64,000 nt of DNA from an uncultured Melioribacter sp. Its GTDB lineage: Bacteria; Bacteroidota; Ignavibacteria; Kapaibacteriales; Kapaibacteriaceae. Shown piece after piece: positions 39,482-62,029 of this stretch. Location of the stretch: the NCBI GenBank assembly GCA_964393485.1, contig CAYMTW010000002.1, forward strand, positions 9,140 to 73,139. The letters are read 5' to 3'. The notes beneath the pieces were generated by a model. The model saw only the letters and a list, made by a program, of their open reading frames with translations, did not search any database and was not told the origin of the DNA. Each line of letters begins with the position of its first letter. Position 1 is the first letter of the stretch. Made by a program: the position numbers and the translations under genes.

Positions 39482-42009
39482 TCCGTCGGTTGCTCGTCAG
39501 CCTTACCGGTGCCTCGGCAGCGGTCGTCGTTATCGGCGTGGTGATCCTGGCCTTCGCCATCATGCTCGCCACCCGCAGTCATCCGGTTCCGTACCAGGAG
39601 ACCACAGCCACGGTGCGCGATAGTGTTCGCGTATATCGCAACTCGTTCGGCATTCCGCACATCGTGGGCCGTTCGATGCACGATGTACTGTTCGCTCAGG
39701 GCTACACGCATGCTCAGGACCGGCTTTGGCAGATGGACTTTTTGAGGCGCTCGGCAACGGGACATACGGCCGAGATCTTCGGTCCTGAGGGTGTTCAGCT
39801 CGATGCGTTCATGCGGACTATCAATATTGCCGCCGTGGCTCAGGCGCAGCGTCGCTCGCTCAGCCGCACAGCAGTGCAGATCCTAGAAGCGTACTGCCGA
39901 GGTGTCAACGCCTACATCGAGGAAAACGCCGACAATCTTCCATTTGAGTTCGATGCACTGGGATACAAACCCAAACCGTGGACTCCGGAGGACTGTCTCA
40001 TTCTTGGACGGGCGATGGCCTTTGAACTCAGTCTAGGCTTCTGGTCGGACATCACCTATGCGCAGATCCGTCATCAGCGTGGAAGCTCGTATGTGGGCGA
40101 CTATGTGCCCCGTGACGAGCGCGGACCATACGTGTTGGACACAGCCGAGGGGCGTGCACCATCGGGTCTGCTCTCTGTCCATGGTCGGGGCTCGGCCGAC
40201 CTTCCATTTGCAGACCTGGCCGGTCTGCGCCAGAACCTGTATCACGTGCGCGAGCGCCTTGGCCTGCGCGGAGCCGGCTTCGGCAGCAACTGCTGGGTGA
40301 TGAAGACACCGCACGGTGGGACCATTGTGGCCAATGACCCGCACCTGAGCGCATCTGCGCCCGCAAAGTGGTACCAGATACACCTTACTGCACCAGGACT
40401 CAACGTTCTCGGGCTGAGTATCCCCGGCATGCCCCTTGTCCTTTCGGGACGGAATGACCAGCTGGCATGGGGCTTTACCAACGCAATGATCGATGACGTT
40501 GATTACGTCGTTGAACGGTGTGATTCGACCAATCCCGAGAACTATTACCTCGATGCCAGCGGTGTGCGTCGCAAGTTCACGTTTGTGGCTGATACGATCC
40601 GAGTAGCCGGTCACAGCGACACGATCATCAGTATCCGTTCGACGAAGACCTCACGGGTAATCTCCGATCACCACCTCATGCGTAACCCGACGGTGATCTT
40701 CGATTTCCCGCGAGTTGCATCCACGTCTTACGTCTTTCCGGAGCGGAACAAAAGGCAGCCAACGTGCATGACCTTCCGTTGGGCAGCAACCTATCCGAGT
40801 GATGAGATCACCGCGATGTATCGCATAAACACTGCAAAAAGTCTCGATCAGGTCCTGCGTGCCCTCGAAGGCTGGGGGGCTCCGGCGCTGAGCTTCTCCA
40901 TTGGCAGTGCCGGCGGGTCGATGGCCAGCATTGTGGCCGGACATCTTCCGGTGCGTGGCACGGCCGATCCGCACCTGCCCATCGCCTCGTGGGACCAGGG
41001 GGCTGATTGGTCGGGAGTTGTCTCACTGACCACGCTTGGACGGGTTGTTAATCCAGCTCGAGGATGGCTGGCAACGGCCAATAATAGGCTCTCACCATCC
41101 CCTACGTATGTTGGATCGCTCTTCGAGCCCCCTTCACGTATCGAACGGATCAATGAGCTGATGAGACTCTACCGAACGCCGTCGGTTCGGGATGTCCAGA
41201 TGATGCAACTCGACGTGGTCTCGCCCTATGCCAAGGATGTTCTGCGCCGCGTGATCCCTGTTCTCACCAGAGGCATCAGGAAACTCTCCAGCGATGAACG
41301 ACGGGCCCTGGCCATCCTTCAGGCATGGGATGCCGGCCATACTCCGCTTGACAACGCAGCGTCGATCTTCTCGGTCTTCCTCGACCGTTTAGTGTGGTCC
41401 ACCTTCGAAGATGAGCTTGGACAGCAGCTCTACTTTGACTGGACCCTTGTGCCGAATATCGCTCTGCGTCGCGTTGATGAACTCCTTGATATGCCTGAGC
41501 ACAGGCTCTGGGATGATGTTCGGACTGTTTCAGAGGTCGAGACCATGCCGTGGATCGTTCTGCGGGCATTTCATGCCGCCATCGTCGATCTTCGTGCTCA
41601 CTTTGAGGTCCCTCCGGAAGGGGGCGCCTGGGCCTTCGGGAAGATCCATTCGGTTACCTTTCCCCACATCTTCGGACGAAACGAACTGATGCGCCCGACG
41701 ATGAATCTTGGGCCCTTTGATGTCGGTGGTAGTCAGACGACGATTAACAACACGCAGTGGAAGTTCACGACCAGCCGTCCGCATGATGTGGTCCTGCCGA
41801 CAACGGTGGTGGCCAGCATGCGCGTGATCTCGTCGCTCGCCGACTCGGTACAGTATACCGTCATTCCGGGTGGTTCGTCGGGTCAGCCCCTTGAAGCGCA
41901 TTACTCCGATCAGGTGCAGCTCTGGCTCAAGGGCGGATACGTCAAGCTTCCTGTCTCACCCATTCCAGATGTCTCGTTCCGATTGTACCATGTCTATCGA
42001 CCGCGATAG
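39478..42009 (+). CDS. Penicillin-acylase family Ntn-hydrolase (possibly an acyl-homoserine-lactone / beta-lactam acylase)
   Basis: An 843-aa ORF with an N-terminal TM/signal and the alpha-subunit motif (FAQGYTHAQDRLWQMD). The predicted beta-subunit begins with the nucleophile Ser (GFG-SNCWVM). ATGA overlap with the epimerase. Confidence 0.75.
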   Translation: MIRRLLVSLTGASAAVVVIGVVILAFAIMLATRSHPVPYQETTATVRDSVRVYRNSFGIPHIVGRSMHDVLFAQGYTHAQDRLWQMDFLRRSATGHTAEIFGPEGVQLDAFMRTINIAAVAQAQRRSLSRTAVQILEAYCRGVNAYIEENADNLPFEFDALGYKPKPWTPEDCLILGRAMAFELSLGFWSDITYAQIRHQRGSSYVGDYVPRDERGPYVLDTAEGRAPSGLLSVHGRGSADLPFADLAGLRQNLYHVRERLGLRGAGFGSNCWVMKTPHGGTIVANDPHLSASAPAKWYQIHLTAPGLNVLGLSIPGMPLVLSGRNDQLAWGFTNAMIDDVDYVVERCDSTNPENYYLDASGVRRKFTFVADTIRVAGHSDTIISIRSTKTSRVISDHHLMRNPTVIFDFPRVASTSYVFPERNKRQPTCMTFRWAATYPSDEITAMYRINTAKSLDQVLRALEGWGAPALSFSIGSAGGSMASIVAGHLPVRGTADPHLPIASWDQGADWSGVVSLTTLGRVVNPARGWLATANNRLSPSPTYVGSLFEPPSRIERINELMRLYRTPSVRDVQMMQLDVVSPYAKDVLRRVIPVLTRGIRKLSSDERRALAILQAWDAGHTPLDNAASIFSVFLDRLVWSTFEDELGQQLYFDWTLVPNIALRRVDELLDMPEHRLWDDVRTVSEVETMPWIVLRAFHAAIVDLRAHFEVPPEGGAWAFGKIHSVTFPHIFGRNELMRPTMNLGPFDVGGSQTTINNTQWKFTTSRPHDVVLPTTVVASMRVISSLADSVQYTVIPGGSSGQPLEAHYSDQVQLWLKGGYVKLPVSPIPDVSFRLYHVYRPR

Positions 42010-42062
42010 GATGTGGTTGCGTATTTTGTCCGACTTCTCTTCACTCATTGTTCCCAAGCGCC

Positions 42063-43544
42063 ATGTCCGTTTCCATCTCCGTTGCCTCGCGTCAGAGCGT
42101 GAAAGCCGACGCTCTGGTTGTCTTCATCCCACAGTCTGAGCGGCAGTTCTCGCAGCACGAAAAGGCCCTTACCACGGCCATCCCGCATCTGACGCCACTC
42201 TTTGAGTCTAAGGATTTCACTGGCAAGAGTTTGCAGACGGCTCTTGGCTACTGCGGTTCCGCAGCCGCCACGGCGCGGATCGTGCTCACCGGTCTCGGTG
42301 AGACCAAGTCCATCAGCCTTGAAACGCTTCGCCGCGCAGCCGCTGCGGCTGCCAAGCGTGCCGCATCGGCCGGCTGCCAGCACCTTGCCATTGAGGTGCA
42401 GACAATCAACGGACTTGATGCCGCCTCATGTGCCCAGGCGATCGTCGAGGGGGCACTGCTGAGCCAGTATGCATTCGACAAGTACAAGACCATCAACGCC
42501 GGTAACAGCAAGAAGGTCAAGAAGATCACGCTCGTGACCGAAAAGACGAATCAGAAGGCAGTCGCCAAGGGTGCTGATGCCGGAATGATCATCGTCGATG
42601 GCGTCAACCTGGCACGCGATCTGGCCAATGCGCCGAACAATGAGATCTATCCAGAGACCCTTGCCCAGCGCGCACAAGAAGTTGGACGCAAGGCTGGATT
42701 CAAGACCACGGTGCTCGACAAGAAGAAGATCGAAGATCTCAAAATGGGTGGCCTTCTTGGTGTCAACCAGGGAAGTGTGCGCCCGCCGGTCTTCATCGTC
42801 ATGGAGTACATGAAGGGCCCCAAGACCGAAAAGCCCCTTGTCCTGGTTGGCAAGGGTGTGACCTTTGACACTGGTGGCATTTCGATCAAGCCCGCCGCTG
42901 GTATGAGCGATATGAAGAGCGACATGCACGGTGCAGCGACGGTCATCGGCACCATGCAGACCATCGCCCGCCTTGGAATCAAGCGCAACGTCGTTGGCAT
43001 TGTTCCGGCTACGGAAAATATGCCGAGCGGAACAGCCCTCGTTCCGGGTGATATCATCACCTTCATGAACGGTAAGACCGCCGAGATCGACAATACCGAT
43101 GCCGAAGGTCGCCTGATCCTTGCCGATGCGCTCTGCTATGCTGACCGATACAAGCCAAGCTCAGTGATCGACCTGGCTACGCTCACTGGCGCCATTGTCA
43201 TTGCCCTTGGCAATGTTACCACTGGCATGATGGGCACCGACGCAAAGATGATGAACCGCCTGCGTGCGGCCGCCACTCGGACGCATGAGTACGTGGGCGA
43301 ACTACCGCTGTACCAGGAGTACGAAGAACTGATCTCCAGCGACTACGCCGACATCAAGAACTCCGGTGGACGCAGTGCCGGATCGATCACGGCAGCCCTC
43401 TTTCTGAAGCACTTTGTGAGTTATCCGTGGGTTCACCTCGACATCGCCGGTACGGCGATCCAGCCAAAGGCCTCGCACTACACATGCAAGGGCGGCTCGG
43501 GCGTTGGGGTGCGTCTGCTAACGGATATGCTCCGCCACTCCTAA
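42063..43544 (+). CDS. pepA: Leucyl aminopeptidase (M17). ATG start at 42063; a TTG alternative lies at 42048.
   Basis: M17 signature NTDAEGRL together with VGKGVTFDTGGISIKP. Confidence 0.85.
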   Translation: MSVSISVASRQSVKADALVVFIPQSERQFSQHEKALTTAIPHLTPLFESKDFTGKSLQTALGYCGSAAATARIVLTGLGETKSISLETLRRAAAAAAKRAASAGCQHLAIEVQTINGLDAASCAQAIVEGALLSQYAFDKYKTINAGNSKKVKKITLVTEKTNQKAVAKGADAGMIIVDGVNLARDLANAPNNEIYPETLAQRAQEVGRKAGFKTTVLDKKKIEDLKMGGLLGVNQGSVRPPVFIVMEYMKGPKTEKPLVLVGKGVTFDTGGISIKPAAGMSDMKSDMHGAATVIGTMQTIARLGIKRNVVGIVPATENMPSGTALVPGDIITFMNGKTAEIDNTDAEGRLILADALCYADRYKPSSVIDLATLTGAIVIALGNVTTGMMGTDAKMMNRLRAAATRTHEYVGELPLYQEYEELISSDYADIKNSGGRSAGSITAALFLKHFVSYPWVHLDIAGTAIQPKASHYTCKGGSGVGVRLLTDMLRHS

Positions 43545-47679: not shown

Positions 47680-48764
47680 AGCTCTACACCCCCGGACCTG
47701 TGCCTGTGCCTGATCGTATCATGCAGGCGGCTGCAGCGCCGATGATCCACCACCAGAGTGATGAGTTCCGTCAAATCCTGGCACGCACGCGATCAAACCT
47801 GCAGGCGATCATCGGAACCGAGGGTACCGTTGCCCTGCTTGCCGGCAGCTCCATGACGGCCATTGACAGTATCACGGCCGGCATGGTGCGTTCGGGCGAT
47901 ACGGTGCTCGTGGTGCGCCATGGACGGTTTGGAGACCGCCTTGCGGATTGTGCGGCCATTCGAGGTGCACGGGTTGAATCACTCGCCGCCCCCTGGGGAG
48001 AGACCATCTCCATCGAGCAGTTCGAGGCGCGCATTATGGAGGTGCTCGCGGGTGGACCTCTCAGGGCTGTCTGGATGGTCCATAGCGAAACATCCACGGG
48101 AGTGTCTCTAGACGTCGAGCGCCTGGCTGCGGTCCTTCACCATCACGCACCCGAGACGCTGCTGCTCGTCGATGGCGTCACGTCCGTGGCCGTCCAGAGG
48201 CTGTTCATGGACGCCTGGAAGATCGATGCCGTCGTCACTGGCACGCAAAAGGGCCTTATGTCTCCTCCCGGTCTTGGCATCGTTGCCATGAGTCGACGTC
48301 TGGAAGACGCTGTTCGCACTACGCCTTCTCATTTGTATTCCAATGACTTGCAACGAGTACTTGATGCACATGAGAAGGGGCTGATGCTTTGGACTCCTCC
48401 GGTATCGATCGTGCGGGCGCTTGACGTTGCCTGCCAGATGATCCTGGAAGAAGGCCTCGAGCGCGTCTGGACACGTCATGATGAGCTTCATCGGTACGTT
48501 ACCTCCGAGGCGTTACGTCGTGGGTTTACGCTCTTTGGTCAGGGCACCTCGCGAGCTCTGGTAGCGGTTGCGCGCGATGGTGTTTCTGAACTGCGCCGCG
48601 AGCTCAAGAGTCGGTGCTCGATGCATGTGGCTGACGGTCAGGACGCCCTTTCGGGCGCGATCATGCGCATCGGGATCTGCGGGTCATATACACTCGAGGA
48701 CATGCGCGAGCTCTTTGCGGCCATTGACCTTGTCGAACCACCACCCCATGGGAGTGAAGATTGA
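47676..48764 (+). CDS. Class V aminotransferase (serine-pyruvate / alanine-glyoxylate aminotransferase-like)
   Basis: N-terminus MKLYTPGPVPVPDRIMQA and the PLP-lysine region (VVTGTQKGLMSPPG). Confidence 0.75.
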   Translation: MKLYTPGPVPVPDRIMQAAAAPMIHHQSDEFRQILARTRSNLQAIIGTEGTVALLAGSSMTAIDSITAGMVRSGDTVLVVRHGRFGDRLADCAAIRGARVESLAAPWGETISIEQFEARIMEVLAGGPLRAVWMVHSETSTGVSLDVERLAAVLHHHAPETLLLVDGVTSVAVQRLFMDAWKIDAVVTGTQKGLMSPPGLGIVAMSRRLEDAVRTTPSHLYSNDLQRVLDAHEKGLMLWTPPVSIVRALDVACQMILEEGLERVWTRHDELHRYVTSEALRRGFTLFGQGTSRALVAVARDGVSELRRELKSRCSMHVADGQDALSGAIMRIGICGSYTLEDMRELFAAIDLVEPPPHGSED

Positions 48765-49999
48765 ACAACCGCATCGTGATCGCTTCGGGTAACCGCCATA
48801 AGATCGCCGAGCTTCAGGAGTTGTTTGCAAGCAATGGTCTGCACGACGTTGAACTGGTTGCCATGACGGACCTGGTTGGCGCGGTGGAGATCGAGGAAAC
48901 GGGGCAGACCTTTGAGGAAAATGCATTCATCAAGGCGCACGCTATTCATGTGCTGACGGGGCTGCCCGTGCTGGCCGACGATAGCGGACTGTGTGTGGAC
49001 GTCCTGGGCGGAGCTCCGGGGGTGCGTTCGGCACGTTATGCCGGAGAAGGAGCCAGCGATGCCGACAACCGCGAAGCCGTGCGGCGCGACATGCAGCAGG
49101 CCGGAACGGAACACTCCGCCGGTTGCTTTGTCTGTGTGCTTTGGTACATCGATGATCAGCGCTCGTTCGGCATCGAAGGCATCGTCAACGGTACGGTCCG
49201 CACGCTTGAGCAAGGCGATCAGGGCTTTGGATATGATTCCATGTTCACACCCGAGGGATCCTCACTCAGCTATGGTCAGACGTCATCCCAGGAGAAAGCC
49301 CGCACAAGCCATCGTGCTCGTGCCAGCGCGCAGATGGTGCGTCGTCTTGCAGCGTTGCGGCATGATGAGCCCCCTGCCGATGAGATCGAACATGCGATAC
49401 ACATTGACGATCTCTGCCGGCTATCGGTGGCCGTGGTCCGGCAGGATACGTCCCTGGTGCGCTCGATCGCCGATCGTGCCGCCGATGCCATGCAGGCGCG
49501 ACGCGTAACCGAAGCCCTCCTGCAGTCGTATGTGTTTGCGGGCTTTCCGGCAGCCCTCGATGCCCTTGGATGCGTAGCCGAGTGCTGGAAGGCAAAGGGG
49601 CTTGCCAGCACCGATGGATCTGAAGACTATTCCGTCGACGAGTTCCGGCGTCGGGGCGAAGAGCTCTGCCGCAGCATCTATGGCTCTGTCTATGAGAAGA
49701 TGATGGATCGCTTTGAGAGTATCTCGCCCTCAATGCGATCATGGATGATCATCGAGTGCTACGGCAAGACGCTAAGCCGCGATGGTCTGACTTCTCTTGA
49801 GCGTGAACTCTGCATCGTCTGCATGCTTGCTGCCCTCGAGCGTCCGGCGCAGCTCTACTCGCACGTGCGTGGTGCACTGGCCGTTGGCGCTGACGTCGAT
49901 CGGCTTCGTAGCTGCGAACATATCGTGACCGAACTCTGCGGAACTCATGTTGCGCAGACGCTCGCTGCGACAATCACCTCGCTTGTGTCTGATCGTTGA
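48761..49999 (+). CDS. Fusion protein: non-canonical purine NTP pyrophosphatase (RdgB/Ham1) N-domain plus a carboxymuconolactone-decarboxylase (AhpD-like) C-domain. TTG start.
   Basis: The N-terminus MNNRIVIASGNRHKIAEL...FEENAFIKA...LADDSGLCVDVLGGAPGVRSARYAG...GFGYDSMF matches Ham1. The C-terminal ~190 aa (LLQSYVFAGFP...ELCIVCMLAALERPAQLYSHVRGALAVGAD) is CMD-like. TTGA overlap with the upstream gene. Confidence 0.6.
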   Translation: MNNRIVIASGNRHKIAELQELFASNGLHDVELVAMTDLVGAVEIEETGQTFEENAFIKAHAIHVLTGLPVLADDSGLCVDVLGGAPGVRSARYAGEGASDADNREAVRRDMQQAGTEHSAGCFVCVLWYIDDQRSFGIEGIVNGTVRTLEQGDQGFGYDSMFTPEGSSLSYGQTSSQEKARTSHRARASAQMVRRLAALRHDEPPADEIEHAIHIDDLCRLSVAVVRQDTSLVRSIADRAADAMQARRVTEALLQSYVFAGFPAALDALGCVAECWKAKGLASTDGSEDYSVDEFRRRGEELCRSIYGSVYEKMMDRFESISPSMRSWMIIECYGKTLSRDGLTSLERELCIVCMLAALERPAQLYSHVRGALAVGADVDRLRSCEHIVTELCGTHVAQTLAATITSLVSDR

Positions 50000-50016
50000 A
50001 CGCGGCCCGTTGACGC

Positions 50017-50916
50017 TTAACTACCGGCGTACTTCAACAGAAAGCTGCGCTGCTTGACGAGTGAGGCTGAGCCCCACACGCCCAGTCCTCCGTTGATGTT
50101 GCCCAGGCGGTAATCGTACGAACTGCGCCTGCCCCCTCCGACAAGGTAGAACCACTCGAGGAAGGCCTCATCGGGTGCGTACACGCGCAGCTCGTGCTGA
50201 CCGTACCAGCGGAACACACCCCAGACCGTCTGCGATGTCGTAAATGGCGTAGCACCAAGCGTGGTGCGTTCGTTGGCGATGAGCGTGCCTGAGCGGTCAA
50301 AGAAGTCGGGCTTGGGACGCACAGTACGTTCGTTCGTATCCGCTGTCAGCGGGTTGAGATACTCTCCATATCCAGCCGTATCGAGGCACGTCAGGCCGAT
50401 GATGTACAGCTGTGTCTTTGCAACCGGAGTCCAGGACACCAGAAGTGAATCGTCGACGGCCGTCAGGAGTGAGTCTGGGTGCGGGAACTGGATCCATGTG
50501 CGTGGCGTGGTCGTCCACGAGAACGTCTCTGGCGTGCGCGTCGAAGCCGTGAGCGTTGCTCCGCGTGCCTGAACCACGACGCTGTAGAGGACGTTCGGGA
50601 GCACTCGGTACGTTGTATCGACAGCACGCCATGTGCCACCTCGGTCATCGGGGACATACTCCATCGGCACATCGATCCCGTCGGCTGTCACAGCGATCTT
50701 TGCCTCTGGTAGTGCCGCCCTCGAAAACGAAAATGTATCTGTTACTGGAAGGGTGCGAAGGATACGCACATCCTGAAGGGGCTCGCCCACAAGGAGCAGG
50801 CCCTCGAGCATGATCTCTTCCGTGTAGTCGGTAGGTACGGGGTCTTCGCACCCTACGAACAGCAGGCCGGTAATGATGAAGAGTGAAGACAGCAGCAGGC
50901 GATACGGGGGCTTCAT
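50017..50916 (-). CDS. DUF4249-like lipoprotein encoded downstream of the TonB-dependent receptor
   Basis: Lipoprotein signal with a lipobox (LLFVGC) in [26 protein letters not shown]. Its start codon overlaps the receptor stop. The pairing of a CarbopepD_reg TonB receptor with a DUF4249 lipoprotein is typical of the Bacteroidetes/Chlorobi group. Confidence 0.5.
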   Translation of the reverse strand: MKPPYRLLLSSLFIITGLLFVGCEDPVPTDYTEEIMLEGLLLVGEPLQDVRILRTLPVTDTFSFSRAALPEAKIAVTADGIDVPMEYVPDDRGGTWRAVDTTYRVLPNVLYSVVVQARGATLTASTRTPETFSWTTTPRTWIQFPHPDSLLTAVDDSLLVSWTPVAKTQLYIIGLTCLDTAGYGEYLNPLTADTNERTVRPKPDFFDRSGTLIANERTTLGATPFTTSQTVWGVFRWYGQHELRVYAPDEAFLEWFYLVGGGRRSSYDYRLGNINGGLGVWGSASLVKQRSFLLKYAGS

Positions 50917-53261
50917 CAGAACTTCAGCTCCAGTGAGATCGTAGGGAGAATGGGCAAAAGCCGCACGTCGCGTGCCGTTGGGATTCCTTCGGTTGTCAGG
51001 AAGGACCTGAACCAGATGTCACGACGCGAGTACACGTTGTAGATGTCAAGGAACAGCCGGCACGGCAGGCCGAACATCGTCGTGTTGTAGTTGACGTTAA
51101 GGTTGAGCTGATGCGAGTTCGGCAGGCGCAGGCCCCAGCGCTGCGAAGGGTTGACCATCACCACGCCCCCTTCCCATCCCGGCATGCGTCCGGCAAGGGT
51201 CGATGTTGCTCCGGTGTAGGACTGCCCGGACTGGAACATAAACGACGAGCCGATCTCCCAGTCCTCGTTGATCTTGTACATGGCCGTGATCTTCAGGTCA
51301 TGCCGACGGTCAAACTTCGGTCGGAACCAGTTGCCCAGATTCACGCTGTCGAAGCGCGAGTACACAAAACCAAGGGCATAGCCGATCCATCCCGTGAGGC
51401 GTCCTGAGCGCTTCTGCAGAAAGAACTCAGCGCCATAGGTGTAGCCGTTGCCGACGTAGAAGATATCTGCCACCTGCACTTCACGTCCACGATTACCCTG
51501 CTGCAGCTCATTGATGTTCGCAAGGTTCTTGTAGTACACGTCAACATTGATATCATAACCGTCATACGGACGTGATTCCATCGACAGGACGTAATGATCG
51601 GCCCGTCCCGGCGGCACGGAGCGGTCCGACGGAAGCCAGGTGTCGAAGAACGAGAAGTCCGGTGCCGAAGCAAGACGCAGGTACTGGTGGTAGATGCCCC
51701 AAGCGGCTTTGAGTGCAACGTCTTCCGTGAGCTGATATCGTACGGCAAGGCGTGGGTCCATGAGCCATTGCTCGCTCGAGGTCCAGTAGCTGGCGCGCAT
51801 GCCCCCTTGCAGGGTGATCTCGTCGGTCATATTCCACGTTGTCTGCGCATACATCGCCTGCGTGTTATCCCAGATCTCAAGGCCGATGGTATCGCGGATG
51901 ACGGTGTTGTTCTGTGCCGACTGTTCAAAGAGCTGGATGTATTCGAAATTGTAGATGTTGCCTTCGTATCCACCCTTGACGCTGAAGGTCTCGCCGGCAA
52001 ACCATTCGAGCTCGACCTTTGTCGTGTAGTCGATGATGCTGTTATTGACGGCAAAGGCAATTCCCGAGTTCTTTCCGTCAAAGCTATTGTCGTAGCGGCT
52101 TGCGCTAACAGTGACCGTAGTAAAGAGTGTCGGATCGAAGATGTGCGACCATCGTGCCGAGGTTGCGCGGTTACCGATACGCACGCCAAAGTCCAGGCCC
52201 GGCTGTGAAAAGCCCAGGTTGTCACGCGTCATGAACCCGCTGATCGAAACCTTATCGTCTTCGCCCAGATTCTGGGTGATCTTGGCGTTGAGGTCATAGA
52301 AATTGAAGGTCGGAAAGGGCGATGACGGATCTTCCGGGACAAGTCCCAGCACGAGATCAAGGTATGTGCGACGTCCACCGAGGAAGAACGACCCGTTACC
52401 GAGCGGACCCTGCACCGAAGCGCGAGAGGAAATCAATCCAAGGCCGACGAGCCCTTCGACATGATCGCGGTTACCGTCCTTCTGGGTGATGTTGAGCACT
52501 GCCGACATGCGTCCGCCGAACTCGGCCGGGAAGCCCCCTTTGATGAGATCAACATCCTTGATGGCATCGTTGTTGAATGCCGAGATGAAGCCGAATAGGT
52601 GCGTCGGGTTGTATACCGTCATGCCGTCGAGCAACACGAGGTTCTGGTCCGGCGAGCCGCCGCGAATGAACAACCCAGAAGAGATCTGCGACGACGTCAG
52701 AACGCCCGGCAGCATCTGCAGGGCCCGAAACACGTCGGCCTCGCCGCCGATGCGCAGCTGACTGAGCTGTTCGATCGGAATGTTCACACGCGAGATCGAG
52801 ATCTGTCGCTTGTCTTCCTGACGATCCGCCGTGACCGTGACCTCGCGGGCCTTGGACGTATCGGAGCTAAGTTCGACGCGCAGTTTCAATGCGCCTGCTG
52901 CCACAACGCTCAGAGGAACTTCTTTGCGCTTGTAGCCGACATACGTCACAATGAGCGTCTGCTCGCCGGGCGGAATGTTCGAGATCGAGAAGAAACCTAA
53001 CTTGTTCGTGTAGGCTCCGAGTTTGGTTCCCTTCACCGAGACTGTCGCACCGATAAGGGGCTCTTTGGTCACCGCATCCTGGACGAATCCTGATACGTTG
53101 CCTTTGGTCTTGTCAGCTGGTTCGATGCGCGAACCACCAGCGGCACGCAGCGTACCGGCAATGACAAAAAGTAATGCGAAGACGAAGTGGAGTTTTTTCA
53201 CAGGCGTGCAGATGACGAACGTTTGCAACGAATGTTGCGTTAACGCCCCCACTACGTCCAA
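50916..53261 (-). CDS. TonB-dependent outer-membrane receptor with an N-terminal carboxypeptidase-regulatory-like domain
   Basis: CarbopepD_reg ([37 protein letters not shown]), a plug, and a beta-barrel ending with the C-terminal Phe (...SLELKF). An alternative GTG start at 53201 ([16 protein letters not shown]) would give a more conventional signal peptide. Confidence 0.8.
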
Positions 53262-53328: not shown

Positions 53329-53676
53329 ATGGCCATCTACATCACCAGCGATTGCATCAATTGCGGCGCTTGCGAACCGGAATGCCCCAATACAGCTATT
53401 TACGAAGCCGGCGCAGAGTGGGAACTTGCCGGTACGCGGCATCAGGACAGTACGTCTCCGGGTGGCTTCAAGGGCGAGTTCTTCTCCGGTGAGTTCTACT
53501 TCATCGTTCCCGACAAGTGCACCGAATGCAAGGGCTTCCATGATGAGCCGCAGTGCGCTGCAGTGTGCCCTGTTGACTGTTGCCTTCCGGATCCGAACAA
53601 CGTTGAGACGGAAGAGCAACTTCTGTCGAAGAAGGACTATCTCGACTCGATCGACACGATCCGCCTGCGCTCGTAA
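53329..53676 (+). CDS. 4Fe-4S ferredoxin
   Basis: The start is at the internal [20 protein letters not shown] (CxxCxxCxxxCP cluster I). A second Cys cluster follows ([21 protein letters not shown]). The upstream extension in the ORF track is rejected. Confidence 0.75.
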
Positions 53677-53679
53677 ACC

Positions 53680-55146
53680 ATGTTTGCGGAGATCCACGTT
53701 GAGCGCGGACGCATTCGAGCCGTGCTACCCTGCCTGACGGGAACGATCATCCGTACCGAGACCGACACGTTCACCTATCCGGGCGGCCATGTCTATCCGG
53801 GGCTGGTTGACAACCATGCGCACATTGTGCTGCTCGGCGAGCAGCTGACATTCACGGACTTGAGCTCTGTCGATGGACCTGCAGCTCTACTAACTGCACT
53901 TGCCGACTCATCCCCCATCGATGGATGGCTGCGCGCCACGGGCTGGAACGAAGAGTTCTGGTCTGAACGTCGCCTGCCCTTGCGTGCCGAGCTTGATGCC
54001 ATCACCGGCGACGTGCCCCTTCTTGCCATGCGCGTGGATTCTCACTCGGCACTGGTCAACACGGCCGCCCTCATGCATGCGGGTATCGATCCGACAACGG
54101 CGCCAGAGCTACTGATCGATGACGACCTCGAGCCCGTGTGGGCTGCTCTGCCAGCCCCTTCCCAGGAAACGCTCCGTCAGATGATCGAGCGCGCAACGGC
54201 CGAATGTGCGCGCCATGGTCTTACGGAGATCCACGATCTGCATGTGTTTGAACCCTGGTTGGAGGTCTTCCGCACGATGGCCGAATCCGGACGCCTACCA
54301 GTGCGCGTGCAGTCGTTTGTTGGCGGTCAGACCCGGCAGTGGCAGTACCTCGGACAGCTTCCGGCAGGGGGCGAGCTGTTGCGCGTGTGCGGCGTAAAGC
54401 TCTTTGCTGACGGTGCGCTGGGCTCGCGCGGGGCGCTGCTCTCAGCCCCTTACAGCGATGATTCTACCACGCACGGACGCTGCCTTCTCAGCGCCCGGGA
54501 TATGACCGATATGATAACCGAGATCGTCCAGGCTGGCTGGCCCTGCGTGGCCATTCATGCCATTGGCGACGAAGCCGTGCACAACGTGATCGATGCCTAC
54601 GAAGCCGTGCGCGCACTGCCAGAGGCTGATGATGTGATCTTTCGTCTTGAGCACGCGCAGATCGTGCGCGATGAGGATGTGCCGCGCATCGCTCGTAGCC
54701 GCATCATGGCCTGCGTGCAGCCGACGCATTGCATCAGTGACGCTTCCATGGCCGAGCGTCGGCTTGGTACCGAACGGATCAACTGGTCGTATCGGTGGCG
54801 TTCGCTTCTTGACGCGGGCGTGCACATCGGTGGCGGCTCGGACTTTCCAATCGAATCACCTGATCCGTTAGCGGGCATTGCGGCCTTTAGTGCCCGTGTT
54901 CCCCGTGGACATCACAATGCCTGGCAGGCACACGAGCGCATCACCAGAGCAGAGGCAGTCGATGCTTTTACCTACGGGGCTCATGTGACCTCGGGCATGG
55001 AGTATCGCCGCGGACGTATCGACGTGGGGTATGACGCCGACCTGACGATTCTCGATGTTGATCTACTGGATGAAAGCGCTAGCGCTAACTCGTCCGATCA
55101 TGTCATGGCCACCTTTGTCGCCGGCGTGCGGCGCTTCGAGCGGTGA
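53680..55146 (+). CDS. Amidohydrolase-family metal-dependent hydrolase (Amidohydro_3 / YtcJ-like)
   Basis: The N-terminal metal-ligand motif is YPGLVDNHAHIV (HxH). A TIM-barrel hydrolase pattern with downstream His/Asp ligands follows. It starts 4 nt after the ferredoxin stop. Confidence 0.7.
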   Translation: MFAEIHVERGRIRAVLPCLTGTIIRTETDTFTYPGGHVYPGLVDNHAHIVLLGEQLTFTDLSSVDGPAALLTALADSSPIDGWLRATGWNEEFWSERRLPLRAELDAITGDVPLLAMRVDSHSALVNTAALMHAGIDPTTAPELLIDDDLEPVWAALPAPSQETLRQMIERATAECARHGLTEIHDLHVFEPWLEVFRTMAESGRLPVRVQSFVGGQTRQWQYLGQLPAGGELLRVCGVKLFADGALGSRGALLSAPYSDDSTTHGRCLLSARDMTDMITEIVQAGWPCVAIHAIGDEAVHNVIDAYEAVRALPEADDVIFRLEHAQIVRDEDVPRIARSRIMACVQPTHCISDASMAERRLGTERINWSYRWRSLLDAGVHIGGGSDFPIESPDPLAGIAAFSARVPRGHHNAWQAHERITRAEAVDAFTYGAHVTSGMEYRRGRIDVGYDADLTILDVDLLDESASANSSDHVMATFVAGVRRFER

Positions 55147-56336
55147 GACCAGATCTGCAGCGTCGGTTCAACTCGGGCGTCAGCCCCGAGAGTCATGCGG
55201 CGCTGATCACCGATCTCGAGAGTCAACTTGGCCTGAAGATCGAATTCCGGATCTGCGAGATGCCGATCTTCATCTCTGGCGAGCTTGCCGGCGAGATGTC
55301 ACGGGCGGCGCAGGAGCTTGTCGAAGAGTGTCTCAGCTCCGAGAACAGAGTCCGCTCGGCTTCAACGCTGCAGCAACGCTACACCGTGCCAAACGAGTCC
55401 ACGCGTCCCCTCTTCAGCGTTGTGGACTTTGCCGTCACGATGGACGAGCACGGAGTTTACCTTCCGAGGCTTATCGAACTGCAGGGGTTTCCGTCGCTCT
55501 TTGGCTATCAGCAGCTTCTGGCCGAGTCGTTCATTGGCCACTATCATCTTGACGCCGTCACGCCGTTTCTCTCTGGTATCGACAAGGCACGCTATACAGA
55601 GCTTCTTGCTACGTCGATCTTCGGATCGCATGACCCGGCCGAGGTGGCTCTGGTGGAGATCGACCCGGACACGCAGAAGACACGTCCGGACTTTGTTGCC
55701 ATGGAAAGGCTCATCGGCCTGCAGAGCGTGAACATCCGCAATGTGGTACGTGATGGCAAGGGGCTTGCCTTTACCGACTCGAGCGGACGTCTTCGTCCGC
55801 TGAAGCGGATCTTCAACCGCGCCATCATCGACGAGCTTGATGACCTGGGTGTTGAGCTGAACTTTTCCTGGAACGACGAGCTCGATGTCGAATGGGCTGG
55901 ACATCCCAACTGGTATTTCCGCATCAGCAAGTTTCTGCTCCCCTACCTGAAGCATCCCACCGTTCCGCGCAGCATTGTCGTTGCCGAGCGTCATGCCTGG
56001 AACGAGGACGTACTTCAGCGCTCGGTACTCAAGCCGCTCTACGCCTTTGCGGGCAAGGGCGTCAATGTTGCGCCAACGATGGCCGACATCGAGGCGATCC
56101 CCCACGAAGAGCTCTCGGAGTGGATCCTGCAGGAGCGCGTGCACTACGCCCCCTGCGTGCCCACGCCCGAAGGTGACAACTTCGTCGAGATCCGCATCAT
56201 GCTCATCTGGCCTGATACCGAGACGCGTCCGGTGCCGGTGATGACGCTGGCACGCACCGGGCGCGGCGCGCTCATGGGAGCACGCTACAACGTGATTCAG
56301 TGGACTGGCAGCTCGGGGTGTCTAATCGCCCCGTAA
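55143..56336 (+). CDS. Hypothetical protein, possibly an ATP-grasp-fold amide ligase. GTG start.
   Basis: The 397-aa ORF has no family I can name. The segment VLKPLYAFAGKGVNV resembles the ATP-grasp phosphate-binding loop (KP..GS.G.GV). GTGA overlap with the amidohydrolase stop. The ATP-grasp assignment is tentative. Confidence 0.35.
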   Translation: MRPDLQRRFNSGVSPESHAALITDLESQLGLKIEFRICEMPIFISGELAGEMSRAAQELVEECLSSENRVRSASTLQQRYTVPNESTRPLFSVVDFAVTMDEHGVYLPRLIELQGFPSLFGYQQLLAESFIGHYHLDAVTPFLSGIDKARYTELLATSIFGSHDPAEVALVEIDPDTQKTRPDFVAMERLIGLQSVNIRNVVRDGKGLAFTDSSGRLRPLKRIFNRAIIDELDDLGVELNFSWNDELDVEWAGHPNWYFRISKFLLPYLKHPTVPRSIVVAERHAWNEDVLQRSVLKPLYAFAGKGVNVAPTMADIEAIPHEELSEWILQERVHYAPCVPTPEGDNFVEIRIMLIWPDTETRPVPVMTLARTGRGALMGARYNVIQWTGSSGCLIAP

Positions 56337-56357
56337 CTATCGTTGCAAACTGGCGCG

Positions 56358-58264
56358 TTACTGAGCCAGCAGGGCTTCGATGCGAGTGGTGGCCTCTTCG
56401 AGGAACTGTTCCTCGGGGTGCAGGCCCACTTCCTTGAACTGAATGCGTCCGTCCTTGCCGATGTAAAACTTGGTAGGAATACCCGTGACGCCAAACTTGC
56501 GCACCACGCTGTCGTCCTTGTCCATGAACATCGGAAACGTCAGACTGGTGTTCTTGGCCAGAAAGTCCTTGACGGTCTTGACGCGGTCTTCGCTACGTTC
56601 CCAGACGTTGACAACGGCAATGACCACGTTCGGGTCATTCTTGTAGCGTTCGTAGAGCTTCTGCAGCGACGGAAACGACTGTCGGCACGGTCCGCACCAG
56701 GTGGCCCAGTAGTCGATGATCACGACCTTGCCCTTCCAGTCCGAGATATTCACTGGTGTTCCGTCAAGAAGCGTGAACGTACCATCGATCCCCGGCTGAT
56801 TGAGAAACTCCTGTTGCACACGCTTTGCCATGGCCTTGCGTCCCGACGCACGCAGCTTGGACTCATCTGAAGCGATCTGCGCGCTGTCCTTACCCTGCTG
56901 CTGCTGAATGCTGCGGTAGGCATTGACGATGCCTTGTGACGAGTGTCCGGCAATAATGGCCCTGCGGGTCAGATCGAGAGCTTTATCGGATTTGCCGTTG
57001 GAGCGGTACAGATCGATCAGCATCTCCTGACAATTCTTGTCGGCATCATCACCGGCGATCTCCACACTTTGCTCGAGTGCAGCGATGGCTGCATCGGCGC
57101 GACCGTTGACGCGCTCGATCGCCCCCTTGATGAACATGAGCAGTGAGCGAGCGATGCGCTGCTCTTCGTTCCATTCCGACGGACCGACGTTGCGCGGACG
57201 TCGTGCAGGATCTTCGGCGGCCTTCATACCCACGTCGATCAGGCGGATAGCCTGCGGACGCAGCGTGTCGTTGCCGCCGATGAAGTTGGCCGCCTGGTGA
57301 TACGTCATGGCCGAGGCCGTTGGGTTGTTGTCGAGGAAGGAGATCAGCAGACGAAGCGCCCCTTGCTGGCTTGCAGCCCGCAGCACCGCGTCGGTGATGT
57401 TCTGGCGTGCACTGCTGGCGGGATACTTCTTCAGGTGATCGACAACGCCGGAGATGAACTCTTCCAGACTCTTGGCCTGACTGATCTGTTCGAGCTGATA
57501 CTGTTCGGCAGCGATCGAATTCGGGAACCGCCGTGCGGCGTCTTCCATCACCCGCGAAGCTTCTTCGCCTTTGCTCTGCGCAGCATAGGCCTGAGAGATA
57601 GCGATGGCTTCAACGGGCGATGAGATCTGCATGACCGATGAGGTCAGCTCTCGGTACTTGCCCGTTGCCTCGTGCTCTTCGAGCTCACCGACGGCTTTGG
57701 CGATCATAATGTAGTTGATCTGCGCTACGGCACTTTTCGGGTACAGACGCGATTCGGTGTTAAGCAGGTCGAGAGCTTCGTTGAGGTCTTCCTTCATGCG
57801 GCACGGGGCTGGCAGCTGTCCGAAGCGGGCCATGGCGGCCTTGAGGTTTGCCCCCTCAACGTGGCGCGTGCCATCCGAGGTGACGAGGAATTCCCAAAAC
57901 AGGTCGTTGTTACGGTCATAGGTGCGTCCGTTACCGACCTTGACGATGCCATAGACCACGTCACGGCGCAGCTCGAGTGATCCCGTCCAGCGTCCCGACT
58001 TCTTGCTCAGGGGAATCTCCGCGGCCTGCGGGGCCTCGGCTTCACTTGTGAACAGATACACCACCGCATGCGGATCACCCGCATCGATCATGTCGGCGTC
58101 ACGCTCCTGGGGCGTGTACTCGATGGTGATCGCCTGGCCGACCTTTGGGCTCATCGGCAGCAGCGTCACGGTTCCAGCAAGAGCGGACGTGGCCGTAGCG
58201 GCTGCCATCAGCAGCACCATGGTGAGTTTGCGCACGGAGAATGTCTTTCGGAGATCGAACATAG
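56358..58264 (-). CDS. TPR-repeat / thioredoxin-fold (TlpA-like) fusion protein, exported
   Basis: The start is at the internal MFDLRKTF, followed by a signal peptide (LTMVLLMAAATATSALA) and TPR-like helical repeats. The C-terminal thioredoxin domain carries WATWCGPCRQSFP (CxxC). Confidence 0.7.
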
Positions 58265-58300
58265 GTCCAATGGGAATGTGATTTGGATGACCCTCGGCGC

Positions 58301-59029
58301 CTAGCGCACAAGTCCGTAGCCGCCATCGACCACGATAGTCTGTCCGGTGATATAGTCCGAACAACGCGCAAAATACCGCACGGCGTCGACAACGTCAGAG
58401 GCCTGACCGTGCCGTTTCATGGGAATGCGCCCCGTATCGACGAGTGAGGCGTCCGAATCTTGCGCCTCAAGGGGCTGAGCAATCGCCCCGGGCGCTACAA
58501 TGTTCACAGTGATCATCGGGGCAAGACTGCGCGCCAGCGAGTGCGCCAGCGTTGCCTGGGCTGCCTTGCTGGTGTTATACGCTGCGCGGTCGCGCCAGAT
58601 CTCGCGGGCGCCCAGCGAGCCGATCACCACGATGCGTCCTGTCCTCTGCGCCGCGCGGCACTGTTGCTGGTATGCCCGCGCAATGGTTAGCAGCGGCAGA
58701 GTGTTCACGCGCATGGCGCCAAGCAGATCATCCTCATCAAGCTCGTCCACGGGCGTTGCCGCAGGAAACACCCCGACGTTATAGACGACCACATCGGCCG
58801 CACCGAGTTCGTCGCAGAGTCCGTTCATGGACGCCGTCAGTTCATCGGGAATGGTCACATCGCACCGGCGCATCGTACAGCGCACTGTGGTCAGTGACGA
58901 GCGCAGCTCGGTTGCCTGATCGGCCGAGCTGTGATAGGTCAGGCCGACGTCGTAGCCATCGGAGGCAAGCCCCCTGACAATGGCCGCACCGATGCGTCGG
59001 GCCCCGCCGATGACGATCGCTACCGGCAT
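58301..59029 (-). CDS. Short-chain dehydrogenase/reductase, pteridine-reductase (FolM/PTR1)-like
   Basis: The N-terminus VAIVIGGARRIGAAIV carries the GGxRRIG variant of the SDR cofactor motif typical of pteridine reductases. The YxxxK active site (YNTSKAA) is present. It is adjacent to ygfZ. Confidence 0.55.
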   Translation of the reverse strand: MPVAIVIGGARRIGAAIVRGLASDGYDVGLTYHSSADQATELRSSLTTVRCTMRRCDVTIPDELTASMNGLCDELGAADVVVYNVGVFPAATPVDELDEDDLLGAMRVNTLPLLTIARAYQQQCRAAQRTGRIVVIGSLGAREIWRDRAAYNTSKAAQATLAHSLARSLAPMITVNIVAPGAIAQPLEAQDSDASLVDTGRIPMKRHGQASDVVDAVRYFARCSDYITGQTIVVDGGYGLVR

Positions 59030-60033
59030 GAGGCATCCGTCATTGGCGGCAGAACCAGCTCGCAGCGCACGGCCGCGCCGTCATGGACCACGTCGATGTG
59101 TGTGCCGGCATGGGCGTACTCGCCACGCACGTAGCCCAGGGCGTAGAAGCTCGTGCCGTCAAGACCCGCGATCACGCTGGTGATGAGTCCCACGGCCGCG
59201 CCTTCGGCCATCACCGGGTCGTCCTGTGTCAGCGGCAGGGGGCTTACAAACCCCATGATGCGCTGCTTGACCTTGTTGTAGGAATCCAGGCGGGCCACCA
59301 CTTCCTGGCCGATATAACAGCCCTTGGTAAACGACGTTAGGTGCAGGAGTCCGGCCTCGAGCGGGTTGTAGGAGAGCGTCCACTCGTGTCCGCGCCGGCC
59401 CATGCCGGCCAGCACGCGGATCGCCTCAACATCCTCGTCGCTCAATTGCGGAAGTTCGTCGGCTGATGCCAGCAGGTGCACGCGCAGAGCATCAATGGCC
59501 TCAGGGCTGCCAAGGATCCAGAAGGACACTTCGGCCGGCGATGGCAGGCGAACGATGCGCAGTTCGCCCTGCGGGGTCTCGAGCGTGGTCCACTGGGCAA
59601 TGGTAAAGGCCGAGACATCGATCTCAGTAAGCTGGGCGACGATGTCGGCCGCGCGTGGACCCAGCACCTCGACGGCATCGAACTCCGAGGAGCGATCACG
59701 CAGGCGAACATCGTCCATGATAACGTACTTTCGTACCCACTGGATGATCTCCGAAGCGGCCTCTGGCGAGCCCAGCAGAAGCGTCGAGGCGTCGTCCTGC
59801 AGGAGCGTCACAACGTCGATGATGCGGGCCTTATCGGTCAGCAGCACCGTCTGGCGTCCGCTGCCGGAGGGCATCGAGCGCAGGTCGTTCGTGGTCAGGC
59901 GGTGCAGCAGATCCACGCGGTCCGCCCCGGTCAGGTCAATGACCGTAAGTCCGGACCGGTTGGCCCAGGCCGCATGGTTCAGGCATGACTGCCGTCGGCG
60001 TCGGATGTCGTCGATCGTCACTGTCGGTATCAT
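59020..60033 (-). CDS. ygfZ: Folate-binding Fe-S cluster repair/assembly protein YgfZ (GcvT-like fold)
   Basis: A 337-aa ORF with a GcvT-like N-domain (VIDLTGADRVDLLHRLTTNDL) and the C-terminal KGCYIGQE motif characteristic of YgfZ. Confidence 0.7.
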   Translation of the reverse strand: MIPTVTIDDIRRRRQSCLNHAAWANRSGLTVIDLTGADRVDLLHRLTTNDLRSMPSGSGRQTVLLTDKARIIDVVTLLQDDASTLLLGSPEAASEIIQWVRKYVIMDDVRLRDRSSEFDAVEVLGPRAADIVAQLTEIDVSAFTIAQWTTLETPQGELRIVRLPSPAEVSFWILGSPEAIDALRVHLLASADELPQLSDEDVEAIRVLAGMGRRGHEWTLSYNPLEAGLLHLTSFTKGCYIGQEVVARLDSYNKVKQRIMGFVSPLPLTQDDPVMAEGAAVGLITSVIAGLDGTSFYALGYVRGEYAHAGTHIDVVHDGAAVRCELVLPPMTDASCR

Positions 60034-60070
60034 TTTCTCACTTGTAAAACGCCCGCAAACCTACGAAACC

Positions 60071-62029
60071 ATGATCGTCCTTGCCGTCCTGATTCTGCTG
60101 CTCGCCCCATGCGCCGATGCTGCTGCCCAGCGCGTGCCGTATCGCGTTCATCTGCGGGATAAGGGGCCCGGAGAATTCCGCCCCGGAACGCCGCTCTACG
60201 ACAGCATTGCACGCGAGTATCACCCGCAGGCTCTTTCGCGCCGCAGCACTGCCGGCATGGCGCCTGTGCTGGACAGTCTGGATCGCCCCCTGCACGGGCA
60301 GTATGTGGACCAGATCCGGGCTATCAGCGACAGCGTGCTAACGTCGAATCCGTGGTTCAATTACATCGTCGTGGGATTGGACTCAAATCAACTTCAACGC
60401 GCGCGTCAGCTGGACTTTGTGCGCTCGGTCAGCCCCTGCCGCAGCGTTTCCTATGTTCTTGGTCAACCTGAGGACTGCACTCCCCCGCCGGACGAGCTTT
60501 CGACGCCGATGCTCGAGGTCGGCAACGTCAATCGCATGCATGACCTGGGCGTGTATGGTCAGGGGGCTCGCATCGGCGTCATCGACAACGGCTTTCGCTG
60601 GCGCAGCATGCGCGCTCTGGGGCATCTGAGCGTTGAGAAAGAGTATGACTTCATCTATCGACGTCCGGTAACGTCCAACCAGGACAACGACCCCGGCGCG
60701 CAGGATCACCACGGAAGTCTGATCATGTCCGTGGCTGCGGCCTGGCACACGGACTCGGTCATGGGCGTGGCACCGTTTGCCACCTATCTGCTAGCCAAGA
60801 CCGAGGACATGCGCTATGAGCGCCGGATCGAAGAGGACCTGTATGTCGAAGCGCTCTGGTGGCTCGAGAAAAACGGCGTGGATATCTCGTCGTCGTCGCT
60901 TGGCTATCGCACCTTCGACAGTACCGACGAGTCGACGCCGTACGAGCTGCTCGACGGACGCACGACGTTTCCGGCACGGGCAATCAACGTCGCCACATCC
61001 CGGGGCATGATCTGCGTAACGGCGGCCGGCAACGAGGGCCCGAAGGGGCGTTCAATTTCTACTCCCGGCGACGCCGACAGTGCCGTGACCGTGGGGGCGA
61101 TCTCGCTTGACGGAACCACGGCCTGGCCTGCCTCCTCGTGGGGGCCGACAGCATCGGGACGTCAGAAGCCGGACTTCTCGGCTCCGGGCATGCGCGTACC
61201 GTCGCAGTTTGTTGATGGCAGTATCATCCGGGCCAGCGGCACCTCTCTAGCTACCCCGTTTGTTGCCGCTCAGTTCGGCCTGCTGCGTCAGTTGTATCCG
61301 GCGCTGCCGGCGAGCATCATCCGTGATGCCATGCGCCGTGCCTCGGTCTATGCCGACGCGCCCGATTCCGTGCTGGGTCATGGTGCGGTGGACATCGTCA
61401 CGGCGGCCTGCCTGCTGGGCCCGAAGATCACCGAGCCGGCCGTGGTCACGGTCGAGGGAAAGACCGTCATTCTTGCGCCCATCTTCTCCACTGATGTGCT
61501 CGAGCCCGAGCTGCAGATGTCATCGCCGGACAGCACAAGAAGTACCGTCATCATTGGACGTCGCATTGTGGGTCAGTTTTACATGTTTGAGCTTGACGAA
61601 CGGGTGTTTGACGCCGGTAAGGCGCGCTATCGCATCATCGCCATGCAGAAGGGCGGCAGCATGGACGTCTATCCTCCGGTCGGCCATGCAGACGTCACCC
61701 AGCGCGGCGTTTCGGTGCCCTGCGGCATGCGTCTGCCGTCGGTACTTGTATCTGTTGCCGACGACCGACCGCGGCATTCCTTGCCTGTTGTCACGGGTGC
61801 GCCACTGGCCACGGGTGCGCGTGAGCTTGCCGTGTCGGGCCTTGTGCAGGCCCCCTACCGCCTGCGTCTCATCCATATTGTGACGGGTCAGGTCATCGAG
61901 GCCGACCTTCTCGGACACGATGAACGCCGGACCTCCGTCATGGCGCCTTCGGGTCTGACCTCCGGAGCATGGATCCTTGAATGCCGGACGCCGGACGCGC
62001 TTGTGCACCTGCCATTTGTGGTGATCTAA
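60071..62029 (+). CDS. Secreted subtilisin-family (S8) serine peptidase
   Basis: The start is at MIVLAVLILLLAPCADAAAQ (signal). Catalytic triad motifs are present: Asp (IGVIDNGF), His (HHGSLIMS), Ser (GTSLATPFVAAQ). The ORF track's 875-aa ORF from 59402 is an antisense run-on and is rejected. The C-terminal ~100 aa form a beta-rich domain that could be a sorting tag. Confidence 0.8.
   Translation: MIVLAVLILLLAPCADAAAQRVPYRVHLRDKGPGEFRPGTPLYDSIAREYHPQALSRRSTAGMAPVLDSLDRPLHGQYVDQIRAISDSVLTSNPWFNYIVVGLDSNQLQRARQLDFVRSVSPCRSVSYVLGQPEDCTPPPDELSTPMLEVGNVNRMHDLGVYGQGARIGVIDNGFRWRSMRALGHLSVEKEYDFIYRRPVTSNQDNDPGAQDHHGSLIMSVAAAWHTDSVMGVAPFATYLLAKTEDMRYERRIEEDLYVEALWWLEKNGVDISSSSLGYRTFDSTDESTPYELLDGRTTFPARAINVATSRGMICVTAAGNEGPKGRSISTPGDADSAVTVGAISLDGTTAWPASSWGPTASGRQKPDFSAPGMRVPSQFVDGSIIRASGTSLATPFVAAQFGLLRQLYPALPASIIRDAMRRASVYADAPDSVLGHGAVDIVTAACLLGPKITEPAVVTVEGKTVILAPIFSTDVLEPELQMSSPDSTRSTVIIGRRIVGQFYMFELDERVFDAGKARYRIIAMQKGGSMDVYPPVGHADVTQRGVSVPCGMRLPSVLVSVADDRPRHSLPVVTGAPLATGARELAVSGLVQAPYRLRLIHIVTGQVIEADLLGHDERRTSVMAPSGLTSGAWILECRTPDALVHLPFVVI

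Follow-up and report, generated by a model that had tools for sequence, protein, structure and literature searches.

The window analysed here is a 64-kb stretch (64,000 nucleotides) of a contig from an uncultured Melioribacter sp. (CAYMTW010000002.1, assembly GCA_964393485.1). It contains three closely packed genes on its plus strand that encode a 2x[4Fe-4S] ferredoxin, an Amidohydro_3-type amidohydrolase and a 397-residue protein, which we describe as a putative carboxylate-amine ligase of an unnamed ATP-grasp family. Open reading frame (ORF) coordinates and translations placed minus-strand genes on both sides of this trio and agreed with the packing reported in a first-pass annotation made from the sequence alone. 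The ferredoxin ORF (53329-53676, 115 residues) ends in TAA and is followed, after three nucleotides (ACC), by the ATG of the amidohydrolase ORF (53680-55146, 488 residues). The TGA stop of the amidohydrolase (55144-55146) shares the sequence GTGA with the GTG start, at 55143, of the 397-residue ORF (55143-56336). We consider this GTG to be the right start, since homologues aligned with the protein from residue 1 over 99–100% of its length. The three genes lie on the same strand with minimal or overlapping spacing, and both their order and similar packing were found in relatives. Judged from these sequence features, they appear to form one transcription unit that has been kept together in Kapabacteria-type bacteria.

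The ferredoxin (53329..53676, plus strand) is of the YfhL/Alvin type. Its Fer4 dicluster domain was confirmed with Pfam, and the YfhL equivalog model NF033683 scored 99.2 bits, above its cutoff of 86. All eight cluster cysteines (C9, C12, C15, C19, C64, C67, C76 and C80) were read from the translation, in a first motif, C9-x2-C12-x2-C15-x3-C19-P (53353..53385), and a second with Alvin-type spacing, C64-x2-C67-x8-C76-x3-C80-P (53518..53568). The nearest solved relatives, 2fgo (P. aeruginosa), 1blu (A. vinosum) and 2zvs (E. coli YfhL), matched it over residues 1-27 and 55-103, and Alvin-type/YfhL ferredoxins share with it the spacing of motif II and a C-terminal extension. The match fell into two stretches because ~27 extra residues (approximately 28-54), lacking in the solved proteins (82–85 residues), split the two cluster motifs. 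Homologues of 109–116 residues, with ~70% identity or more, span Kapabacteria, Ignavibacteria and Chlorobiota.

In the loci of relatives, the ferredoxin was 75–93% identical, compared with 43–59% for the amidohydrolase and 46–60% for the ligase. In addition, two ferredoxin orthologues (70–72% identity) were found in unrelated contexts, one preceding genes for metallo-beta-lactamase-fold (Lactamase_B) and Rieske proteins and the other preceding those for LytR_C and RsfS. As the ferredoxin is far better conserved than its neighbours and has orthologues that occur without those partners, it is probably a general-purpose electron carrier of the cell. The first-pass annotation had supposed a ferredoxin dedicated to the trio, which it probably is not.

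The amidohydrolase (53680..55146, plus strand) is a YtcJ-like, metal-dependent member of Amidohydro_3, with a full-length match to PF07969 of 293.7 bits against a cutoff of 29.7. The assignments of the first two genes to the dicluster ferredoxins and to Amidohydro_3 therefore stood. No equivalog came near its cutoff in an NCBIfam scan of the amidohydrolase, and its closest solved proteins, 3igh and 3icj (E ~1e-40), are two uncharacterised Pyrococcus hydrolases. The binuclear-metal ligand set that it shares with YtcJ-like hydrolases (HxH, carboxylated Lys, His, His and Asp) was complete, with D44, H46, H48, K240, H293, H325 and D388 invariant in 28 orthologues, and the enzyme thus looks catalytically competent.

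The 397-residue protein and its predicted fold

The third protein (55143..56336, plus strand) gave no match to Pfam, NCBIfam or PDB sequences when searched as a single sequence. It is no orphan, however: over 6,800 clusters (90% identity) matched it, which, where named at all, are called "hypothetical protein", and an exhaustive profile search recovered 1,357 family representatives at 50% identity. The first-pass annotation could name no family for the protein but had guessed that it was ATP-grasp-like. An AlphaFold (AF2) model built on 32 homologues had a predicted local distance difference test score (pLDDT) of 91.9 and a predicted template modelling score (pTM) of 0.91. Comparison of this model with the PDB by Foldseek returned 28 matches at a probability of 1.00 (E 3e-13 to 4e-8, template modelling (TM) scores up to 0.63), and all of them belonged to a single clade. 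They comprised 3n6x, Gss, YgiC, YjfC, trypanothione synthetase, eukaryotic glutathione synthetase (GS) and homoglutathione synthetase (hGS) with their nematode derivatives, and Cp1B. Below these matches the E values were at least 0.19, and it was there that the classical ATP-grasp enzyme PurK first appeared.

Remote sequence matches pointed to the same clade. A profile of 66 diverse family members (25–54% identity) matched PDB sequences of YgiC (E 2.3e-4) and 3n6x (E 1.5e-3), and hhalign against YgiC/YjfC/Gss reached a probability of 77% in the K263-K297 region. The gain came only with the 66-member alignment: single-sequence and low-diversity profiles gave no PDB sequence match, and hhalign then stood at 46%. 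The Pfam family GSP_synth (PF03738) did not match the protein even at E <= 10, and CP_ATPgrasp_2 (PF14403) did not match it either, so that neither gathering threshold was reached. Weak matches were found among the 32 relatives, sub-threshold for GSP_synth in eight (best E 0.027) and to CP_ATPgrasp_2 in two (best E 5e-4). Together, these data led us to predict with high confidence, from the model, that the protein adopts an ATP-grasp fold of the GspS/eukaryotic-GS/CP-ATP-grasp type, as had been guessed. Its family is a separate one within that clade, outside both Pfam families.

The conservation of residues allowed a putative active site to be outlined. Among the 66 diverse members, P41, D95, E112, R226, P255, K263, E349, R351 and R371 were invariant, and E39, Q114, R222, N225, K297, P298, G304 and G306 were conserved in at least 90%. 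Global hhalign paired D95, E112, Q114, K263 and K297 with D102, E115, N117, K267 and K302 of YgiC, and K297-P298 with K302-P303. In the Gss structure, the equivalent positions would be D318, E330 and N332 for Mg, with K498 and K533 as the lysines that contact ATP. The strand pair D95...E112-L-Q114 (55425..55484) is predicted to supply Mg2+ ligands. K263, K297-P298 and the G304-x-G306 loop (55929..56060), located by hmmsearch and the same hhalign comparison, are predicted to bind the ATP phosphates. The KPLYAFAGKGV loop on which the first-pass guess had been based (residues 297-307) falls in the most conserved region of the family, as a probable ATP-binding strand and loop. Late in the fold lies an invariant acidic/basic pair in the 66-member alignment, E349-x-R351 (56187..56195). 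To judge from other ATP-grasp enzymes, the third Mg ligand is probably part of this pair.

The closest comparison is with the GspS family (PF03738; 2io7, 7uk8, 7uk6), which includes the synthetase domain of E. coli Gss and the peptide-spermidine ligases YgiC and YjfC. It gave a top structural match (E 4e-13, TM score for the query (TMq) 0.62), and YgiC was the best match at the level of sequence profiles. The order of motifs is the same, with an Asp and a Glu-x-Asn/Gln strand ahead of two ATP lysines, and the chemistry predicted for the 397-residue protein, that of an acyl-phosphate carboxylate-amine ligase, is alike. However, identity is <=17%, the Asn position holds Gln, and Val stands in place of the Arg before the Asp. 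There is also neither a CHAP amidase fusion nor a DUF1190 neighbour as in ygiBC/yjfMC, and the partners and phyla differ.

The best Foldseek match was the CP_ATPgrasp_2 protein 3n6x (E 3.2e-13), and its profile match, the second best, covered the R-I-Y-N-R region. Proteins of that family are longer, at ~450–480 residues. CP_ATPgrasp_2 genes are usually accompanied by Alpha-E and transglutaminase genes, and neither kind flanked the ligase in loci from 80 species, which were only partly annotated with Pfam. One further locus (L082) has a Transglut_core2 gene ~3.4 kb downstream of the ligase on the opposite strand. Eukaryotic GS/hGS (2hgs, 1m0w, 3kaj) and the fungal E-64 ligase Cp1B (9cjn), all of them small-molecule carboxylate-amine ligases, belong to the same fold clade (E 1e-12 to 5e-9, TMq 0.54–0.63). 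They are only 10–13% identical to the window protein, which is ~80 residues shorter, and gave no sequence-level match. Cp1B, YgiC and hGS have been placed in one group (PMC12568646).

Two unusual forms were noted among the homologues. Several Elusimicrobia-type proteins (P0124, P0126, P0148 and P0159) have a signal-peptide-like N terminus, an unexpected feature in an enzyme that depends on ATP, together with ~150 additional Ala-rich residues that have no Pfam match. A fusion of a sodium:solute symporter (SSF) to the ligase, 870 residues long (P0129/P0391), was present on six Thermochlorobacter-like contigs.

Gene contexts of the trio and of the putative ligase family

The first-pass annotation had proposed examining whether the three genes travel together across genomes. 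We collected ligase-centred loci (numbered here with the prefix L) from 80 species-level genomes, and amidohydrolase-centred look-ups added further loci. Within the Kapabacteria-type lineage the genes did travel together. The trio was found with window-like flanks in six loci (L001, L003, L004, L082, L083 and L089), and in L001-L004 the wider neighbourhood was conserved too. It was also present with wholly different flanks on a 2.16-Mb Kapaibacterium contig (L088) and in the related L094, where the upstream genes encode the DNA polymerase III alpha subunit, a thioesterase and a histidine kinase, and a convergent arginine decarboxylase gene lies downstream. The amidohydrolase and ligase genes overlap by 4 nt in these two loci, and overlaps of 4 or 11 nt were seen across L082, L083, L088, L089 and L094. 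In a neighbour-joining tree, ligases from the ferredoxin/amidohydrolase context formed two separate clades in the Kapabacteria-type branch. Because the trio has been kept in L088/L094 despite the changed flanks, and occurs with two ligase clades, it appears to be a maintained unit in this lineage. Chance adjacency was rejected on the complete change of flanks, and the same two loci led us to reject restriction of the trio to one conserved synteny block.

The convergent gene in L088 (8755-10650) and L094 (3586-5496), directly downstream of the ligase, encodes a biosynthetic arginine decarboxylase of the polyamine pathway. This placement is suggestive, by analogy with structural relatives of the ligase that use spermidine, though the decarboxylase is encoded on the other strand.

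In the family at large the trio did not hold together. The amidohydrolase adjoined the ligase in only five of the 80 ligase-centred loci (L001-L004 and L012), whereas in 52, from Acidobacteriota and Ignavibacteriaceae, the ligase was the last gene of a fixed five-gene operon. The order of that operon is an alpha/beta-hydrolase esterase, a RimK-like ATP-grasp protein, a YbdK/GCS2 carboxylate-amine ligase (NF010039, 560 bits), an M29-like peptidase and the ligase of the 397-residue family. The RimK-like member is divergent, matching TIGR00768 below its cutoff (E 2e-9). This operon was seen in loci L016-L080 (for example, L020:1707-7185), often preceded by a sigma-54-type regulator and followed by a Ser/Thr kinase-TPR protein. 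The GCS2 ligase beside the family recalls the two-step logic of glutathione synthesis. Within the 64-kb window, no homologue of the GCS2, M29, RimK-like or esterase genes was found. Glutathione synthetase proper was rejected as an identity for the 397-residue protein, given the lack of a sequence-level match and of GCS2 in the window. Literature text searches for the 397-residue family, or for an operon of GCS2, M29 and ATP-grasp genes, returned nothing relevant.

Other contexts were seen as well. A MepS-like NlpC/P60 endopeptidase gene lies upstream of the ligase in L005, L008, L009 and L084/85, and an adenine-deaminase-like Amidohydro_1 gene does so in L007. Major facilitator superfamily (MFS) transporter genes lie downstream in six loci, those in L008 and L009 being of the anion type. 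The recurring partners are thus amide hydrolases, other amide ligases and transporters, which suggests as substrate a small metabolite that is peptide-like or derived from an amino acid, and not a protein or RNA.

Comparison of the ligases from three context groups identified 43 positions, with all predicted catalytic residues among them, that were conserved across every group, and nine positions that were fixed differently between groups. Residue 381 (56283..56285) stood out: all 11 ligases from the ferredoxin/amidohydrolase context had Arg there and all 52 from the M29/GCS2 context had Asp, a difference that suggests a different substrate in each. It sits in a Gly-rich C-terminal loop. Eukaryotic GS and hGS have a C-terminal specificity loop, and by analogy residue 381 may be a specificity switch.

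Proposed function of the trio

Based on the gene packing, the predicted fold, the remote homology, the conserved catalytic residues and the synteny patterns, we infer a ligase activity and a substrate class for the 397-residue protein, a partnership between it and the hydrolase, and a passive role for the ferredoxin. The reading that we favour, at a probability of about 0.5, is that an acyl-phosphate carboxylate-amine ligase is translationally coupled to an amide hydrolase, with the ferredoxin as a co-transcribed general carrier. The 397-residue enzyme would most likely bind MgATP through K263, K297, the G304-x-G306 loop, D95, E112, Q114 and E349. It would phosphorylate a carboxylate, on a small peptide or on a metabolite derived from an amino acid, and an amine would then attack the resulting acyl phosphate to give an amide, ADP and inorganic phosphate. 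The amidohydrolase would most likely hydrolyse either the same amide, so as to turn it over or control it, or a precursor amide from which the substrate of the ligase is obtained. The ferredoxin would share the promoter without feeding the chemistry. The position of the upstream amide hydrolase is filled differently by lineage: Acidobacteriota and Ignavibacteriaceae have an M29 peptidase there, and others have NlpC/P60 proteins. The first-pass annotation had viewed the trio as a module for small-molecule or peptide modification. A ligase of that kind working with an amide hydrolase remains the most likely interpretation, but a dedicated role of the ferredoxin was not supported, and its pairing with the amidohydrolase was also seen where the ligase is missing.

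Several observations weigh against this interpretation. The link between hydrolase and ligase is drawn from their adjacency, and the best-conserved link of the trio is instead that between ferredoxin and amidohydrolase, which our explanation treats as passive. That pair was kept in at least four flanking contexts (L082, L083, L088-L092 and L094), two of them without the ligase (L090 and L091/92), and in L093 the amidohydrolase stood alone. The ligase gene lies beside unrelated housekeeping genes (among them sigma factor, ACPS, Obg, MetRS, SDR and CLC channel genes) in 19 of the 80 loci and in several genomes of the Kapabacteria type, and it may therefore need no dedicated partner. At the putative active site, the E-x-N Mg motif reads E-x-Q, a chemically plausible replacement with Gln at position 114 in 90% or more of the family, and the Arg found in YgiC/Gss two residues before the Asp (R100) is Val in the window protein. 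Lastly, a scan for sigma-70 promoters and intrinsic terminators found nothing above shuffled sequences, although promoters of the Bacteroidota type fall outside such a scan.

The main rival is that the trio is co-transcribed but functionally unrelated. The true partners of the ligase (RimK-like, YbdK/GCS2, M29 and esterase proteins) would then be encoded elsewhere in the genome, and the ligase would catalyse the final ligation in a pathway of several steps to a gamma/alpha-glutamyl-type peptide. We regard this as possible, though doubtful. The fixed gene order in 52 of the 80 loci speaks for it, as do the catalytic residues common to all context groups and the occurrence of the ligase among unrelated genes. 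Against it stand the lack of homologues of those four partners in the window, the survival of the trio and of the amidohydrolase/ligase overlap through a complete change of flanks, and the difference between R381 and D381, with the different substrates that it suggests.

We consider it improbable that the protein has the ATP-grasp fold and is no amide ligase, being instead a kinase-type or nucleotide-binding regulator or, in the manner of the GS-like effectors of nematodes, an inactive scaffold. The Gln in place of the canonical Asn, an identity of 17% at most to any characterised enzyme, and the signal-peptide-like N termini of the Elusimicrobia-type homologues could be taken in that sense. 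However, all predicted nucleotide and Mg residues are invariant or nearly so in members down to 25% identity, the structural neighbours of known activity are all carboxylate-amine ligases, and the genomic partners belong to amide chemistry and transport.

The position of the ferredoxin as first gene and its repeated pairing with the amidohydrolase would fit a dedicated modification module coupled to redox chemistry, with electrons passing from the ferredoxin to a pathway of the other two enzymes. We reject such a module as unlikely, since amidohydrolases and ATP-grasp ligases catalyse non-redox reactions, the ferredoxin is a general one by its YfhL score, its conservation and its orthologues in other contexts, and outside Kapabacteria the ligase family never adjoins a ferredoxin in the 80 species loci. 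A system for peptides that ribosomes synthesise and that are modified after translation (RiPPs), or a graspetide system, was rejected on the small-molecule ligases among the structural neighbours and the lack of room in the trio for a precursor ORF.

Neighbouring genes and significance of the putative ligase family

The minus-strand genes that flank the trio encode a TonB-dependent receptor (50916-53261), upstream of the ferredoxin, and a 668-residue protein with TPR and thioredoxin-like redoxin domains (56358-58364), downstream of the 397-residue gene. The stops of this gene and the 397-residue gene converge, with 21 bp between them (56337-56357), and no intrinsic terminator was detected there. 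At 48761-50916, genes for a Ham1p/CMD fusion and a DUF4249 protein are 17 bp apart, with no S13 gene between them; in L082, L083 and L089 a Peptidase_S13 (PBP4-type) gene sits in that position. An 875-residue mechanical ORF (59402-62029, plus strand) has a Peptidase_S8 domain at residues 386-661 and overlaps a GcvT-like gene (59020-60033, minus strand). Its true start is probably near 60.0–60.1 kb, as the S8 proteins of relatives are 667–674 residues long. Two other amide hydrolases, a penicillin-amidase family protein (843 residues) and an M17 leucyl aminopeptidase (498 residues), are encoded at 39478-43544, ~10–14 kb upstream of the trio, with no evident link to it. No tRNA or Rfam matches were found in the window.

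What is gained for the window itself is modest, as the trio is a lineage-specific operon of ordinary enzyme classes. The wider interest comes mainly from the size of the ligase family and from the unexplored three-ligase operon of Acidobacteriota. A large family annotated only as "hypothetical protein" now has a predicted fold, a probable chemistry and catalytic residues that can be tested, and its members abound in phyla of soil and sediment about whose metabolism little is known. It is an unnamed addition to a known kind of enzyme, and the conserved five-gene operon of Acidobacteriota, with its three amide ligases, was brought to light with it.

More tentatively, we speculate that these ATP-grasp ligases are an undescribed and widespread family, common in Acidobacteriota, Ignavibacteriota and Kapabacteria, that makes an amide-linked metabolite, either a peptide or a conjugate of peptide and amine. 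Soil Acidobacteriota would build such a metabolite with the RimK-like protein, the YbdK/GCS2 enzyme and this ligase, and trim it with the M29 peptidase and the esterase. In Kapabacteria, a version of the ligase whose specificity is switched, with R381 for D381, would be coupled instead to a YtcJ-type amidohydrolase.

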